From positions 328,042,001 through 328,106,000 of the forward strand of contig NW_027362768.1 in assembly GCF_046119375.1 (NCBI RefSeq): a DNA stretch of 64,000 nucleotides, in the 5' to 3' direction. Positions within the stretch are counted from its first letter, which is position 1. Every line of letters begins with the position of its first letter. Positions 1,742-61,400 of this stretch are shown here, piece by piece. Below the pieces are notes generated by a model. It was not told the origin of the DNA and did not search any database. It saw only the letters and a list, made by a program, of their open reading frames with translations. The position numbers and the translations under genes were made by a program. Source of the stretch: Phyllobates terribilis (lineage: Eukaryota).

Positions 1742-2224
1742 CTCTGCCCAGATTAGAAGATAATCATTACATACTTTGGCTCAGACTTTTCTTAGCTGTA
1801 GTATTTGTTGCTGCCAATTTACATGTGGCTTTCCAGAAAGTATAGGAAATGGAAGTCGAACATAAATCTTTGTTTCCAGTATGAAAATGACAAAATGTAA
1901 GTTTGTTTTTTTTCTTTTTGAGTAGATTACAATATGAAAAAAAAAAAAAAAAAAATCGGCACAACTAATTTGCCTCTTCAAAAGCACTGATCTATGTATG
2001 ATAGTAACTGGATTATGTAGACTATACTATGAGAAAATATCCCAAACGCACAATCATCATTGGTCAAGGGACTAGAGTCTAGCATCCCCACATAAGAAAC
2101 CGCAAAATCAAGCAATGCAGTACTCCTAACAGCATGCACAAAACAGGAAAAAAATGCATGTCGGGGCAGTGTTCCACTTTAGCTTACAAGTGGTGATGCT
2201 TACCATGGATTAAGTGGAGCACTG

Positions 2225-2261
2225 CCCCGACGTGCGTTTCGCATGTAGCTTTCTCAAGGGG
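2225..2261 (-). ncRNA. Minimal type I hammerhead ribozyme motif, U3-A8 core variant
   Basis: Minus strand CCCC-UUGAGAA-A-GC-UACAU-GC-GAAA-C-GCAC-GUC-GGGG: 4-bp stem I, 2-bp stem II, 2-bp stem III, GUC cleavage triplet. Confidence 0.65.
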
Positions 2262-2420
2262 AGCTGATTGTGTCCTATCTGGTATTTATGATGTGTCCAC
2301 AGATGCCAAATTAGGAGCGCGCATGAGCGCTGTTGCTCCCGCCATTGCGATGCGCTGCTCCTAATTTGGCATCTGTGGACACATCATAAATACCAAATAG
2401 GACATAATCAGCCGACACCT

Positions 2421-2457
2421 CCCCTTGAGAAAGCTACATGCGAAACGCTTATCGGGG
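2421..2457 (+). ncRNA. Second copy of the minimal hammerhead, stem III damaged
   Basis: CCCC-UUGAGAA-A-GC-UACAU-GC-GAAA-C-GCUU-AUC-GGGG; G16.2 to A breaks the C15.2 pair. Confidence 0.55.
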
Positions 2458-4168
2458 CAGTGCCGACGCCTCCCCTCATCATGGGTATGCATCACCACTT
2501 GTAAGCTAGTCTCCTGTTTCACTTTGTGTTTATGGCCACTGCACACGGTGATTAGAAACTGGCTGCATAGGTCTAGTATGTACTATACACTGCTTCATAC
2601 CTTGGATTTATTTGGTGACTATCCTGACATTGTTGCAGTGTATGGTAATTATTTAAAAAAATGAATGTTTCTAATATAGTTTTTAATTCTGGTGGTTTAT
2701 GGTTACTCCAATTTCTAGTTTGTGCATAATCCAGTTACTATAGATACCATAATGCCAGTATACAAGGAGCAGATATCGTCTCCTCCAACTCACTTTTTGA
2801 CAGAGTACAGTCCTGTGTCTCACCAGACCATTCAGACGCTGTCCGTCACATCCTCCTCCTGCCTCCATGCTAGTAGAGACTTGACCTCTGAATCTGCTCC
2901 TATTTCACAAGTTGTACATTTAGGAGTTTTCAGGTTTAAAACTGGTTGAAATCACACTTTTTTCTGCACAAAACATTTTTGGGGTTTTTGGTGTTCTTAC
3001 ACCAGTCCCAGCTTCAAACGGTGGTAGATACTTGTTCTACAGACCATAATAAAGTGATTACAGTCCAGGTAAATCTGTCTTTGGTAGTGTGGGAGAAAAC
3101 TATTGCATAGGGAGAGGACATAGACGCTCCATGCAGGTGTTGTCCATGCCATCCCCCTTTGATGATTCTTGCCTTATGTTCTGAGGATGCGGATACAGGG
3201 GGATGTGCTACTGTCCAGTGCCTCTAGGTTATTGGGAATCACATACTGGGGGTATTTTGCATCTGCGTCTTTTGTTTGCGTAGGGCTCTTTCCTACATCC
3301 ATGATCATTGATCTGATCAGATTACAATGCATGGACCGGCCGTGCATCTCCCGAGCCAGAGTGTGACTGCTTCATAGATTTCAATGAGGCCGTCACGCTC
3401 AGGGTTGGGAGACGCACGGCCGGTCTGTGCATTGTAATTGAGATCGGATATATGAAATAGCCCTTACAGCGACCACGCGGCATATGCATGATTGGCTGCA
3501 GTGGTCACAAGCTTTAGTGGTGCCGTCACTGCTGCAGCCTGGGGAGCAGGGGACTTGGTAAAGCCCAACATTGATGGGAGTTCAGAACTAAAAAATGCAA
3601 TTGTTTTTTTTTTCCTCTCTCTAGACTGAAAAAAAATGTGTAGTTAAGAGTGGATGCGATTTCATAAAAAAACCACCATTGGTTGTAATGTGATATTGCA
3701 CCCAGGTTCTAATAGATACGACCATCCGCCTCTGTTGTATATTTTGAAGAACTCCGCTATAGATTGCAGTTAGCGCTCCACTACTATCATGTTTTTTTTT
3801 TTTTTTTACCAGAAACAGCGCCACTCTTGTCTATGAGTTGTGTCTGGTATTACAGCTGTGGCACATTCATGTAAGCATGGCTAAGCTGCACTACCAGACA
3901 CAGCCAGGCCTGGTGCGGTTTTTCAAAATTAATTTCTGAATGTTTTTTCTATTAACCATCCCTCTCACCTCATACTGAATTTCTAGAAGGTTCGTATCAG
4001 GCCATTAGATCTTAAGTTAAGAAGCTAAAATATGCAAATTGTCTCTTCAGAGAGGAAGAGGATTTGAGCTCTAGCGCCATCGATTGGAAGCAGCGATCCT
4101 ACAAGTCAAGATTGACCTTTTAATGAGCCTTGTTATAGGACTTGGGGGAAAAAAAAAGTCAGACCAGA

Positions 4169-4229
4169 ATCTCAATTTGCAGACATGATGTTTTGGGGTA
4201 TTGCCCCTCGTCAGTGCAAAGTGTGAGAT
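4169..4229 (-). ncRNA. Type I hammerhead ribozyme copy with probably inactivating G12A
   Basis: Minus strand AUCUCA-CAC-UUUGCA-CUGACGA-GGGG-CAAUA-CCCC-AAAA-CA-UCA-UGUC-UGCAAA-U-UGAGAU; the GAAA box reads AAAA. Confidence 0.7.
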
Positions 4230-4275
4230 CTGGTTTGGCTTACCCCTTAGATCCCAGTCTTAGCCTCTCACCCAG

Positions 4276-4336
4276 ATCTCATACATTGCACTGACGAGGG
4301 GCGACACCCTGAAACACAGTGTCTGCAAATTGAGAT
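4276..4336 (+). ncRNA. Extended type I hammerhead ribozyme with intact catalytic core
   Basis: AUCUCA-UACA-UUGCA-CUGACGA(4291-4297)-GGGG-CGACA-CCCU-GAAA(4311-4314)-CA-CAG-UGUC(cleavage after 4323)-UGCAA-AU-UGAGAU; stems I, II and III all pair and stem I has an internal loop. Confidence 0.8.
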
Positions 4337-5131
4337 TCTAGTTTGGCTTTTTTCCGAAGTCATATTACAAGGGTCGACATTGACTTGTAGGATTGCTGCT
4401 TCCAATAGGTGGCACCAGAATTCCAATCCTCTTCCTCTCTGAAGAGACAATTTGCATATTTAATTTCCCAGAGGAGCATGCAATACTGGCGTGTCAGACA
4501 TGGCATGTCGCTCTGCATAAGGAGAAAACGTACCCCTTAGAGCCAAGTAAAGAAGCTGAAATTCTCATTTAAGACAAGGCGTGTGATCTTGGATTCTTAA
4601 AGAGTAACCGTTTGTTTTAATTTTTCATAAATCAATAGTTCACATGAAAATAAACTTATTTATCATATCAGAGAAATCTGCTTCTTTCCCATCATTCAAT
4701 AATACATTCAGGTGTAAAAAACAGTACTCAGTGAAGATAGATTTTTCCAATGACTGAGATTGGTGATGACAGTTGGTGTTTTTAAAATTCTATGGAGGAG
4801 GCGGAGCCAGAGGCAGACCAGTTCTCCATAGAATTTTATGAGTACTAACTGTCATCTATCTTAGTAATGGGGAAAAAATATCTGTATTTACTGAAGACAG
4901 GTTTTACCTGTGAATTGGGAATGAAAAATCATTACTAGAAGAGAAAGGAGCAGATTTCTGCTATATAATTTATAATTAGGGGTAAAAAAAGATCAACTCC
5001 ACCTCTCATCTCCATCCAAGATCACGTTATTACCAAGCCTCCGGCACTAAGACCGGTCAAAGATCTACAACATTAGAGAAAATGCCACTGATATGCTTCA
5101 ATGCTAATTTTTTTTTTTCTATTTCATTAAG

Positions 5132-5343
5132 GAACATCTACATTTGCGATACCGGCCCCCCCACCGCCTCCTCCACTATTCGCGCCTGTTCCTCCTCCAA
5201 GTAAAGATGTGCCAAGTGACTTGGCCGTGCCCTCTGTGAACGGTACAGATCGTGGTGCCCTACTCCACTCCATCCAGAGCTTCAAGAAAGGAGGGCTGAA
5301 GAAAGCGGTGACGGCTGACCACAGCGCCCCCCGGATCAGCTGA
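5132..5343 (+). CDS. PXK: PXK (PX domain-containing kinase-like protein, MONaKA) last coding exon: proline-rich stretch plus WH2 domain
   Basis: Polypyrimidine tract and AG at 5130-5131; phase-1 translation (G)TSTFAIPAPPPPPPLFAPVPPPSKDVPSDLAVPSVNGTDRGALLHSIQSFKKGGLKKAVTADHSAPRIS* matches the vertebrate PXK C-terminus; syntenic with PDHB. Confidence 0.92.
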
Positions 5344-7886
5344 GTGTGAATGTCACCACTTATCGCTGAATAGCAAGTTTTCGGTAAAAAGAACACCTTA
5401 CGTTTTAAAGGAAGGTTAATGGTAGGAAAGTAGAGGCCCTGACTCTCCTAGTAAACATGCCTTGCAGACGAGACACCATAGATAAAAATATATACCTGTA
5501 AATTGAGGACTGGTTGTGGGTTGTGCTGCCGTCCAGCTCTTCACATAGGGAGTCCTCACCATCCTGCAAGAAATGGACCCAGCGCAGGGACCCTCAGCGG
5601 CAGCTTCAGCCATACCTTTATACCAGTAATGAAAGCAGAAGAACATTTGGGGACTTTTTCCTGCACTTTTTAAAAAAGGTGGATTTGGGCAAGACTTAAA
5701 ATTAGAGTTTCATTTTCCTCCCCTGACCCAGATGCACCAGGCAAGATGGGGTCCAGCACCTATCCAGCGCTTCTGGCATAGTCTGCGGATACTCCAGAAA
5801 TGTCTATGATGGGAATACTCCTTTAAAAGGAATATTTCATCACAAAGTACAATATTCTCCCTGACCTATTAGACTCCTAGGCCCCTGATTCACTGGCGTA
5901 GCACACGAATAAGAAGCATCAAATTCATTAAGACGTGCATTCCCCTTAATAAATTCGGTGCGTCTCATCAGTAGCGTGTGCCATGCCAGAAAGGTTGCTC
6001 CAACCAGGGACCGGAGTAACATTTCTAGCATAAGCAACGTCACTGCGATTCATTAATTTGACTGGTGAGCACAGCCACGTACTGACTCCTCACCAAAACT
6101 GGCGCGTACATGGCGACAGTCGCACATTTTTTGCGACTTCTCAGTGATTGATGAATCGGGGCCTTAGTTCCTTCAAGGAACAACAGTCTCATTATCACAG
6201 ACAGAATTATAAAACATTACCTTCAGATACATTAGCCACCATTCACAATAGGCGACGTCACAGCTCACCTCTTCCCCCTCCCTTCATAATTACTTTGGAC
6301 AGTCAGTACAGTCTATTGCTACTAGTGTCCAATGCCAAGTTTTGGGGTTTTTTTACATTAAAAATGAGCTGTGATTTGAAAAATTTTAAATAAAAATCGA
6401 TTTAAATCTGTTTTTAACAGTTGGTCATTTTCTGATGACTTTTTTTTGCACCTAGTGCACAGCCTCCTATCTGTAGGGCCGCCTTTTCCACACCCGCTTG
6501 TTATATGGGCATCACTCTCCTTCTGTGAGTGACCCATTTACCCCCAGCCCTGGGAAATGTGTTGGGGGGGCAACTTATCTTATACGATAAGGAGGATCTG
6601 TAGATCTAGAACATAACACATTCCACCTGGCGGCGTGATTTATCAATTTAGCAGTTAATATTTCCATTAGGACGGTCACATGTGTTTACAGTGTTCATTA
6701 TATTACCAAAATCCGTTACATGATCTGGGCAGGGGAGAAGATGGAAGGTACAACCGGCGAAGAATCATCTTGTTTTTTTTTTTGCACTTTAATAAATCTG
6801 TTTTAAGAGGGATCTAGTGTATGATTATCGGGCTCAGTAATACAATGTATATTCAGTCATATTTTTATTAAAAATAATAAACCCAAACTTTGGTCTCGTG
6901 TGAGTTTCCTTGATCTTAATTGGAATTACCCCGTTGACTTATCGCCATCATTATCTGTACATTTTAGCCTCCTCACCAAAGAATCAGAATAGAGAACAAA
7001 CCAATTTGTTAACCAATTCATGAGGTTTTTTTTTCCTTCTAATTTTGTTTAAATTTACTTAGGATTTGTTTTCCTATTTTTATTTACACACTATGTTCCC
7101 CATAAGGTCTTAAAAGACCTTTTGAAGGGTATTTTTTTAATTTTTTATTATTTCACCTGTAACTGGGGCTGGTATATTATCCCCAGTTACAGGAAATTTT
7201 TGTTTCCTTGCTACAGAGGTGAGAGGATCTCTCAAGAACCAGCATCTCCTGCTCCCCCTTTACACCCAACAATCACCGAGTCCAGAAGAGGAAGCACTGT
7301 CAGTGCTTAATAACCTGTATACACAAAAGCTGGTTCACAGCTGTGTATACTGAGATGGAGAAGGTAAACATGGTAATAATACGGCATGAAAACGTGCCCT
7401 GAACCTGTCCGGAGCCTCAGCTGCTGCAGAACCCAGTGCCACAGCAGTTTACAGATTAAGTGTGGCATTGCAGCTCAGCGGTACTGAAGTGGCGGCACTA
7501 CCACATGTATACTAAAAAACAGTTGACAATATTTGGAAGAAAGCAGCCATGTTTTACCAATCCTGGCCAAATCTTGTAATTTCTTTGTTAATCATTGTGG
7601 GGTAGGCTCAATAGAAATTAACAAAATCAGAAATGGAGGAGAAAAAAAAAAAAAAACAGAACCCACCCCAAAACTAAATAAATTCCAGATTTTATTTGTA
7701 TACAAAGCAACATTGTACATGTTCTCATAGTCACAGCGTGTGGACCTCTGAGTTCATACAGACGTATGGGTTATTTCTAATAAATATTGTCTGTGCTGTA
7801 ACATGTCTCCCATATATGATGAACTTGGTGGAGTGTCTTAAAGTGACTGCATATGCTAAGACATCTAGTACAGATTATCCAGTGTC

Positions 7887-17679: not shown

Positions 17680-18302
17680 CCGAGTAGTTCAGTGCACCTT
17701 CCCACCTACTTGTTTTCCATCCATCTCTGCCTCCCTCTCCCTTGACTGACAGCTCTGGCTTTGCAATGAGGAAGGACATAGATGGAAAACAGGTAGGTGG
17801 GACGATGCACCGAGCTTTGCAATTTGGCTAATCACTGCCTCAAACGCCTGTGCTTGATTTCGTACAGTCAATTGGTGCTGACAGACTCCCTGTTCAAGTT
17901 GCAAAGTTGGGACTCCAAGAATAGGACTTACAAGACAATCAGTCAGGAGTAGTCGTGACCTAGAGACTACGTCATCCTCCAATAAAAGATTGTCAGCCTT
18001 CATCACACCACAGAAGTGCAGCCTGTTCACACTGAAAGCGTTGGACTCTGAATCTGCTGCTGGCTTGTAGAAGTCAATATGTCTCAATAACATTGTGTGT
18101 TAGTTATAAGGAGACATATCCTCATACAATATGGTACACATCGATTCACAGGACCCAGTACATCACCACCTTGGTGATCTGTGGCCGCTCACATATGAGA
18201 CACAAGGCAACGATGAACCGTCGATGTCAGAAGGAAGGAGACGATTCTCAGGGCTCCCATCCAGCAGTCAGAGATTACGGACTTGACCACTGCACTGGGT
18301 CA

Positions 18303-27773: not shown

Positions 27774-29163
27774 CTCAGTGATACGAAGAGACCGCACCTA
27801 TGGGGTTTTCAGAGCGTGAAATGGATGACTGCTGAGCTAGAAGGGTTGTGCTCCTGCCGGCAGAGATGTCCGTGGTCTGTACCTCTCGCTCCATCACATC
27901 CGTCTTTTATTCCAGGTTTCGATCCCTCTGTGATATCTGAATCGACACGTTCTTTCGGACGAGGACTGATGCGCTGGACGTTGTGAGAAAACCCTACAAA
28001 TAATCACTGAGGTCCGTGATCCTTTCTTTATGTTTTTATTATCTTTTGCTTGTTTTACTTTCTTCTTTTATCTTTTGTGTTTCTGGTGTTTTATGTCTCC
28101 AATGACTCTCCAGATATTGCAAACTGAGTTGTTGCCAACGATGGAGCGCCAGAGCCATTCCTCCTCCATACTTTACACTGCAGGTCTGCTTGTTCAGACT
28201 CGCTGCTGCATAACAGCACAGAAAATCAAGTGAATGGAAAACTGATTTCTATTACTCCAGTGACTACAAGTATAAACGAACATTGAAATACAATTGCTAG
28301 ACGTATTGTGGGGTATACGTTCCTCCTTAAAGGATATGGACACTTTTGGAATTTTTTTTTTTTACTATAATGCATGTATTTTTGGCTAAAAATCATGTTT
28401 GCAATTGGGTTTCATTACAAATTTTGCACTGTTGCTCCATAGCCTCTGTGTTACAGAATGAGTTAATGGAGAATCTTTCAGTGAGCTCATGCTGACGGGC
28501 GTGGATCTCGGTCCAAGCATGAACCGCCAGGCCCGGACTGGTCACGAGTCTACCGACTCGAGCGAGACAGCCTCATAGAAATATATGAAGCTGTCTTGCT
28601 CGGGTTAGGAGACCCACGGCCAGGAAGTGCATTGCCGTATGTGCCCGGACTTAGATCCGCAGACTTAGAATGAGCTCACTGAAGGATCCTCCATTAACTC
28701 ATTCAGCAGCCAGCAATAGACTGTGTTGAATGGAAGATTGCCTGAGCCCTTACAGAGAGTTTATAACTCTTATCTTCCATCTTCTGAGCTCCTTTCTGCT
28801 GATTGATGTCTACAGGAAGGTTGAGCTGGACTATTGTGGTTATGAATCAGCTGAGAGAAGCCCAGAAGAAGGAAGATAAGAGTTATAAACTCTCTTATAA
28901 GAACAAGCTCACTGAAGGATTCTTAGTTAACTCATTCTGCAATCAGCAGTAGACATTGCAAAAAAAAATGTTTTTTTTTTCTTGACAAAAATACAACCAT
29001 CTCCTCCTGTGTCAAAGGTGTCTACAGCTTTTAAGACTGTAATGAGTCTAATCTAATGTAGAAATCCTTTTGATGTGTTTTGAAGGCGCAGGACCCGGAT
29101 CGGTGTATGCATTCCTCAGCATTCAAGCGTCGGGTTCATTCCAATCATCAGTCATTTGATCAA

Positions 29164-60919: not shown

Positions 60920-61400
60920 AAACCCAAGATAAAAACATAATAAACAAATACCCTGCAGTACGTAAATAAATAGCGATAGTGAATAAAAATAACATAGCGG
61001 ACTTAGTTAACATTGTTTTGATCAAAAGAACGTAAAAGCCATCACACAACATCAAGGTGACCCTATTTGGAATGGTTCTAACCTCTAGCATTAAAAACTT
61101 ACCATTTGTCAAGTGATGTAAATGTTAAAAAGGGCTTAGAAGAACTGAGACCTGGCTAATGGACACCCGGTCCTTTGGTCCTTCTCAGCCTTTATTGACA
61201 TTTACATCACTTGACGAATCGTAAGGTTTTAATACTAGCGGTTAGGACCGTCACGAATAGGGTCACTTTGACGTGGTGTGATGGCTTTTACGTTGTTTTG
61301 ATCAAAATTATTTTAACTAAGTACCCGATGTTATTTTCATACCCTGCAGTAAATAAATAGCAATAGTGTATTTGCATATTATGTTTTTATCTTGGGTTTT
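60920..61400. mobile_element. AT-rich imperfect palindromic MITE-like element
   Basis: AAAACCCAAGATAAAAACATAAT pairs with ATTATGTTTTTATCTTGGGTTTT; AACGTAAAAGCCATCACAC pairs with GTGTGATGGCTTTTACGTT. Confidence 0.65.

Follow-up and report, generated by a model that had tools for sequence, protein, structure and literature searches.

Penelope-type retroelements typically leave a 5'-truncated copy in inverted orientation, with a tail at one end only (PMC8557442, PMC3846280). In the Neptune-type EN+ elements described in the same papers, a head-to-head 5'-truncated inversion beside the 5' end is accompanied by a tail of 30-40 bp at one end, a target-site duplication and a hammerhead ribozyme in the pseudo-LTR. 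In vitro work on Poseidon from the green anole showed cleavage and extension of both strands of the target, with two internal start sites of reverse transcription defining the tail and no need for ribozyme cleavage in insertion; the ribozymes of Penelope elements can also be protein-assisted (PMC11167929). Pairs of minimal hammerheads on opposite strands, about 100-700 bp apart, have been reported as probably truncated Penelope copies, and a single minimal motif gave no detectable cleavage (Cervera and de la Pena 2014, PMC4209133). Animal non-LTR retrozymes and newt satellite 2 are non-coding units of about 330 nt found in tandem and dispersed copies, and their type I hammerhead has a 6-bp helix I, a 4-bp helix II and a weak helix III (PMC7229834, bioRxiv 10.64898/2026.07.22.740005). 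Efficient cleavage by the ribozymes of amphibian retrozymes needs a dimer (PMC7229834). Retrozymes, which are often intronic, have been argued to be non-autonomous Penelope derivatives (bioRxiv 10.64898/2026.07.22.740005).

We analysed a stretch of 64,000 nt from Phyllobates terribilis (the window), which contains two fold-backs, elements A and B, upstream of an exon encoding a WH2 domain. Our comparison with sister copies leads us to conclude that A and B are real, ordinary insertions of kinds already known. The features of the locus are as follows.

2029..2156, minus strand: outer part of the inverted arm of A, the 3' end of a family-A pseudo-LTR with tail (distal 3' end); 65-82% match to family copies.
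2152..2179, plus strand: short re-inverted filler in A (3' piece of the ribozyme region), replacing about 250 nt missing from the left arm; inverted repeat I10, direct repeat D14 and a gap in the map to family copies.
2180..2353, minus strand: inner part of the inverted arm of A, which holds a minimal U3-A8 hammerhead antisense to the host gene; its core is at 2257-2251 and its cleavage is predicted near 2229; core scan and family map.
2350..2727, plus strand: direct arm of A, running to the proximal 3' end, with a U3-A8 hammerhead at 2421-2457 whose stem III palindrome is broken; family map and folding.
4014..4031, plus strand: left copy of the B target-site duplication (18 bp, 2 mismatches, overlapping the element end by a few bases); duplication test.
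4028..4241, minus strand: inverted 5'-truncated arm of B, unit positions 34-241, with a hammerhead carrying G12A, antisense to the host gene; family map.
4240..4548, plus strand: direct arm of B, just over one 328-nt unit, with three internal deletions; family map.
4276..4336, plus strand: type I hammerhead of B on the sense strand of the host gene, with intact core boxes and G10.1-U11.1; cleavage is predicted after 4323, and the ribozyme is predicted to be buried in the fold-back; core scan and folding.
4545..4562, plus strand: right copy of the B target-site duplication; duplication test.
5132..5343, plus strand: last coding exon of the host gene (proline-rich stretch and WH2); acceptor AG at 5130-5131, contigs of four runs beginning at 5130 or 5132.

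The inverted repeat of A is formed by arms 2180-2318 and 2357-2508, whose pieces are 92-96% complementary, and that of B by arms 4028-4233 and 4272-4461 (85-87% complementary); the central gap is 38 nt in both. Every arm carries one hammerhead-type motif reading outward. The two elements show no significant similarity (best blastn E 0.43), and their core types differ, being C3-G8 in B and U3-A8 in A, where A9 is followed by an additional base. Comparison of repeats, cores and blastn matches thus bore out the layout described in the original prediction: an unpaired centre, an outward-reading ribozyme on each side and complementary arms, with different sequences and core types. The full extents, about 2029-2727 for A and 4028-4548 for B, are larger than the fold-backs of that prediction, and asymmetric. 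The arms of A overlap by 4 nt at 2350-2353, its filler being a re-inverted piece of 28 nt, and those of B are joined over about 2 shared nt. No further copies of either element were found in the window.

Two of the four hammerhead motifs, B right (plus strand) and A left (minus strand), passed the core scan. Damaging changes were found in three of the four; the left motif of B carries G12A, and the stem III palindrome of the right motif of A is broken (CGCTTA). The copy at 4276-4336 had been called core-intact and sense to PXK. It does lie on the sense strand with its core boxes kept, but it has G10.1-U11.1 where its family has G-C, and stem III was still not predicted when the motif was folded alone. 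A G-U pair at this position would be expected to weaken a hammerhead. The Rfam scan of the window returned 14 matches at E<=1, with no hammerhead family among them and weak hairpin matches only. A "double hammerhead" denotes two copies on the same strand. Each element here has one ribozyme per strand, a transcript across A or B containing one ribozyme and its antisense, and no pair of same-strand ribozymes with matching stems, as an active double hammerhead would require, was found in A or B. A mixed A-B ribozyme dimer is impossible, since stem I of A is incompatible with that of B.

Element A is likely the truncated 3' end of a Neptune-type Penelope retroelement. A genome search gave 68 candidates for its family, which is smaller and more diverged than that of B. 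Sister copies extend beyond the ribozyme in both directions, and their 3' ends fall into two clusters about 120 nt apart; in the window copy, the far site (2029) terminates the left arm and the near site (about 2727) the right. At locus L092, RT motifs are followed by a CxxCxxC linker, GIY-YIG-like motifs and then a family-A ribozyme. The L092 frame contains GTAMG and YIDD, which we take to be RT motifs, and matched Pfam RVT_1 with E 2.6e-4, under the curated cut-off. The GIY-YIG-like and CCHH-like motifs in L092 and L113 were recognised by eye, and Pfam gave no GIY-YIG match. Open frames of more than 1,000 aa related to that of L092 are present in the genome, and, of the other loci matching this frame, three of the best six lie within 0.1-2.6 kb of family-A ribozymes. 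At L104 the ribozyme follows the frame in the same orientation, and both L092 and L104 carry the hammerhead in the 3' pseudo-LTR. L092 too is an inverted insertion: a truncated copy lies in reverse orientation on its 5' side, and its target-site duplication measures 14 bp; a duplication of 12 bp was found in L091, both duplications being recognised by eye. L091 was rejected as a full-length element for lack of RT motifs.

Family A thus has in common with EN+ Penelope-like elements an attached RT frame, a hammerhead in the 3' pseudo-LTR and an inverted 5'-truncated copy with a one-sided tail and a duplication. The CxxCxxC in its frame is compatible with the Cx2-5CxxC linker that lies between RT and endonuclease in the Neptune clade (PMC8557442), and both A and L092 fit the Neptune-type layout of PMC8557442 and PMC3846280. 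Compared with the units in these papers, A has no coding part left and a further internal rearrangement, while the inversion and tail are kept; the tails here measure about 100-120 nt rather than 30-40 bp. The motifs of A also resemble those of PMC4209133 in their U3-A8 covariation and extra base between positions 9 and 10.1. No direct target-site duplication was found in the flanks of A. These flanks hold a 17-bp inverted repeat, and a search for a small hairpin family that would account for it gave 0 matches.

By its sequence, element B is a copy of a non-coding 328-nt non-LTR retrozyme. A genome search gave 7,338 candidates, of which 40 were scored, and 47 loci were mapped (17 picked by palindrome, 28 by tail and 2 arrays). 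The unit of the family is 328 nt long and circularly permuted, with a canonical type I hammerhead, and the family majority has an intact core, a 6-bp stem I and a 4-bp stem II, resembling the retrozymes of PMC7229834 and bioRxiv 10.64898/2026.07.22.740005 in unit, helices and copy arrangement. Head-to-tail tandems occur in arrays L093 and L094, neither of which contains a frame of at least 120 aa, and no autonomous partner of B was found. Exact 18-mer ribozyme matches number 3,999 in the genome, and exact head-to-head pairs with centres of 30-130 nt number 88 (reversed control, 0). Exact words were kept in 6/21 and 8/21 of the tail-picked copies. Extrapolating roughly from exact words, we estimate about 14,000 ribozyme copies and 600 close pairs for the B family alone. 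Two fold-backs within 2 kb would need no special cause where several such families populate 10.6 Gb.

We then compared the ends of the B-family copies. Their 3' ends cluster at two sites separated by about 100 nt, unit positions 232-247 and 2-18. In one set of 26 inverted copies, 12 had both ends at these fixed sites, and all 12 had one end of each kind; the other 14 had at least one end off the fixed sites. The first mapping set added 18 more one-of-each copies, L004 being left out as ambiguous (it maps with two proximal ends, yet its tail continues). Poseidon differs here, as PMC11167929 reports that its start sites do not differ between strands. Target-site duplications were tested at 33 of the 47 loci, 14 being left out with unclear or interrupted ends. 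A score of at least 10 was reached at 15 of the 33, against 0 of 1056 mismatched pairs. At a score of at least 8, duplications were present in 9/12 one-of-each copies and 0/14 other inverted copies (control, 18/870). Duplications were commoner in inverted than in single copies (15/21 versus 3/11, p=0.027), a contrast that was weak in the chromosome-order sample (3/12 versus 2/17).

Arms longer than one unit were found in 14 of 58 cases, so the template is likely a multimer or a circle. A cleaved linear monomer was rejected as the usual template because many arms run through the predicted cut site.

We consider it highly probable that A and B are separate, decayed insertions made by Penelope-type enzymes, joined head to head after twin priming, in an intron that is spliced uncut. 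The element protein would nick both target strands about 10-18 bp apart, and a separate cDNA would be primed at either nick, the two beginning at different fixed sites on the RNA that lie about 100 nt (B) or about 120 nt (A) from each other. Both cDNAs would stop at variable points and join head to head over a few shared bases. The product would be a fold-back that has a one-sided tail and is flanked by a duplicated target site, and a ribozyme would be present on both arms only when both cDNAs run just past it. The literature that we searched, whose coverage is incomplete, held no statement of a twin-priming model for Penelope elements.

The same elements could instead have acquired their mirror image by self-priming, in which the first copy folds back and is recopied, as proposed in PMC3846280. 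We asked whether the second arm is contained in the first, using 29 one-of-each copies (L124 was left out as complex). One arm lies inside the other in 16, window B included, and several copies (L078, L122, L014) have near-zero loops; A and B are both compatible with such a snap-back. In the other 13, by contrast, the second arm is not contained in the first, in 9 of them by at least 25 nt, making a snap-back impossible unless template jumps that could follow it are invoked. A simple snap-back also fails to account for the termination of the second arm at the alternative fixed site, beside the duplication. Together with the multi-unit arms and the extension of both target strands in vitro (PMC11167929), these 13 copies lead us to favour two primings, one per nick, and self-priming appears improbable.

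Returning to twin-primed insertion, we next considered whether the layout could represent something else, either a new class of inverted ribozyme-pair elements moving as a unit or a structure kept as a switch for cutting or regulating the host transcript ahead of the WH2 exon. The presence of two such structures within 2 kb might suggest a unit, and the 5' ends of tail-picked arms lie just upstream of the ribozyme in 8/39 cases, which was not significant (p=0.066). However, the centres are copy-specific, ranging from 38 to 126 nt in 15 fetched head-to-head pairs (62 nt in window B), and the 5' ends of B-family arms are spread across the whole unit. Inverted copies made up 12/29 loci taken in chromosome order (C1), the other 17 being single; this sample comprised the first 30 ribozyme matches less L145, the same insertion as L144. 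They made up 12/28 loci picked by tail, from which L061 (the query) and L080 (a repeat of L066) had been dropped, and in which L075 resembles a duplicate of L070. In many inverted copies the ribozyme is limited to a single arm or missing from both, and the double-ribozyme layout is confined to the minority of copies whose two arms end a little way upstream of it. The undescribed general class proposed in the original prediction is therefore not supported: the layout has been published, its junctions are copy-specific, and the fold-backs of the sister copies examined are in substance ordinary 5' inversions of Penelope copies. The link that it drew to Penelope pseudo-LTRs copied as inverted fragments was upheld by these sister copies and by PMC8557442 and PMC3846280.

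As for a switch, both fold-backs lie within a single intron of 9,673 nt, the last of the host gene. The WH2 exon was identified by Pfam PF02205 (E 1.3e-8). Three exon-like stretches precede the window on the same strand, at distances of about 6.4, 5.1 and 4.6 kb, and the last of these joins the WH2 exon in phase across the intron. This places the fold-backs upstream of the acceptor in an intron, as had been expected, with the preceding exon about 4.6 kb before the window. From its peptide motifs and the WH2 match, the host gene is likely PXK. Other short hairpins are also present in the intron.

The sense ribozyme of B, with its core boxes kept, would be the candidate for cutting this transcript. 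Intact boxes are common in its family, however (30/58 ungapped copies, with G10.1-C11.1 also in 14/58), so the window copy is not special, and each arm of B departs from the family majority at 23 positions. Folded alone, the ribozyme has a three-stem fold probability of about 3e-6, at a cost of 7.8 kcal/mol. Equilibrium prediction raises this cost to 59 kcal/mol inside the hairpin and to 45 kcal/mol in nascent RNA with the ribozyme just transcribed. Predicted folding thus supports the suggestion that the long hairpin sequesters the ribozyme: the antisense arm, transcribed first, would pair with the sense ribozyme, and the intron would be spliced out uncut. In four runs the WH2 exon was covered to a depth of 133-167 and locus-specific intron contigs to about 2-16, on both sides of B. 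None of these runs is recorded as RNA, their RNA nature being deduced from the exon-intron contrast. They are assembled contigs in which RNA ends are invisible, so that the absence of a depth drop at 4323 and the gaps in cover over the core of A are uninformative. These depths fit normal splicing of the intron and are compatible with minor cleavage. With the sense ribozymes damaged, that of B buried by about 59 kcal/mol and the exon covered far more deeply than the intron in all four runs, the predicted cutting of the pre-mRNA before the WH2 exon is unlikely.

The hairpin had also been proposed as an ADAR substrate. Nine of 22 listed contig differences were A>G on the host strand. Two lay in the left arm of B (4083 and 4089, run X2), four at 3321-3438 and two at 4765-4856 in non-ribozyme hairpins, and one in the outer arm of A, beside other changes. 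The X2 contig over 4008-4180 had 10 differences, whereas its flank contig of 503 nt had 1 and a gap. For runs X10, X3 and X11, contigs had 5, 4 and 4 differences, counted but not listed by letter, which probably fall within roughly the final 30 bases ahead of 4051; that of X10 appears to carry the family letter at 4063 and may be another allele or a chimera. Over 4028-4051, at least 4 differences from the window were also present in 23 of 94 family windows. A contig over the right arm of A (2404-2571) had 0 differences. The A>G differences hint at editing without proving it, and we regard ADAR editing of B as an even call. The duplex may be edited like other intronic hairpins; such editing, if real, would not be specific to ribozyme hairpins, and there is no sign of a regulatory role. 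With all 26 A's of the antisense arm edited, the predicted cost of the ribozyme fold would still be 42-64 kcal/mol.

Taken together, the variable centres, damaged motifs, distant ribozyme fold, incompatible stem I sequences and deep exon coverage make a unit-like class or a kept switch very improbable. Were the sense ribozyme of B a host-kept, editing-gated switch, with ADAR, a helicase or a Penelope protein opening the hairpin, the last intron would be cut, yielding a form of PXK that lacks the actin-binding WH2 exon; we find this specific version barely credible. Finally, DNA-transposon MITEs or later DNA-level inversions holding ribozyme-like motifs by chance, for which the other short hairpins of the intron and the secondary rearrangement in A at 2152-2179 might speak, can practically be dismissed in view of the variable centres, the asymmetric, variably 5'-truncated arms that often exceed one unit, the flanking 10-18-bp duplications of variable sequence and the attachment of family A to an RT frame.

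Decayed, twin-primed insertions by Penelope-type enzymes hence remain our reading of both fold-backs. The locus itself carries little weight, being two decayed insertions among thousands. Its families extend earlier descriptions in two respects. The Schistosoma pairs are described in the text of PMC4209133 that we draw on with their ends unmapped, whereas ends, junctions and duplications were mapped here in two families. The retrozyme papers (PMC7229834, bioRxiv 10.64898/2026.07.22.740005), in the sections relied on here, argue for a Penelope origin from phylogeny and co-occurrence, whereas the B family bears the Penelope insertion footprint directly. An autonomous-type element (A) and a non-coding retrozyme (B) leave an identical footprint, and because both families share it, the movement of retrozymes by Penelope enzymes is supported. 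The one-end-of-each rule, together with the 13 of 29 copies that exclude a simple snap-back, provides a testable model of how the head-to-head layout arises.

Several inverted repeats in the window lie outside the two ribozyme-bearing fold-backs, elements A and B, and are listed here with one tandem repeat.

1-1313: inverted repeat with 421-nt arms (1-421 and 830-1250, 98% complementary) and a 408-nt spacer
1479-1741: 87-nt tandem repeat, three copies
3321-3438: short non-ribozyme hairpin, 58-nt arms, 83%
4656-4975: nested inverted repeats, pairing 4656-4693 with 4938-4975 and 4765-4797 with 4824-4856
6227-6275: partial fourth copy of the 87-nt repeat, 4.5 kb from the other three
17689-17813, 28769-28880 and 61106-61220: three more hairpins that weakly match microRNA families

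We found differences from A to G, on the host-gene strand of assembled contigs, in two of these hairpins. Within the non-ribozyme repeat at 3321-3438, they fall at 3387, 3395, 3401 and 3416 (contigs of up to three runs), and these four make it a candidate ADAR cluster. The inner pair of the nested, MITE-like repeats carries such differences at 4830 in all four runs and at 4833 in three of the four.

The three distal hairpins are probably MITEs; in an Rfam scan of the window, their microRNA-family matches scored far under the curated scores. With additional terminal pieces accompanying its 421-nt arms, the repeat at 1-1313 resembles a foldback or MITE element of recent origin, truncated by the window start.

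In place of a direct duplication, the flanks of element A, a decayed copy of likely Penelope type, share a 17-bp inverted repeat (2001-2017 and 2725-2741). A search for a small hairpin family with this flank sequence gave 0 matches. Elsewhere in the P. terribilis assembly, related Penelope-type frames are arrayed about 4.5 kb apart, on C4 near 737-738 Mb and on several small contigs, and some are open over >1,000 amino acids.

In another family-B copy, at genomic locus L072:1486-2065, the unit junction holds an internal tandem array of a 28-nt repeat, about seven copies long. The 328-nt family-B unit of element B contains a ATTTGCAT octamer precisely at one 3' end site (4451-4461). Downstream of it, a motif at 4510-4530 resembles a frog snRNA promoter element; newt satellite 2 uses a promoter of the snRNA type.
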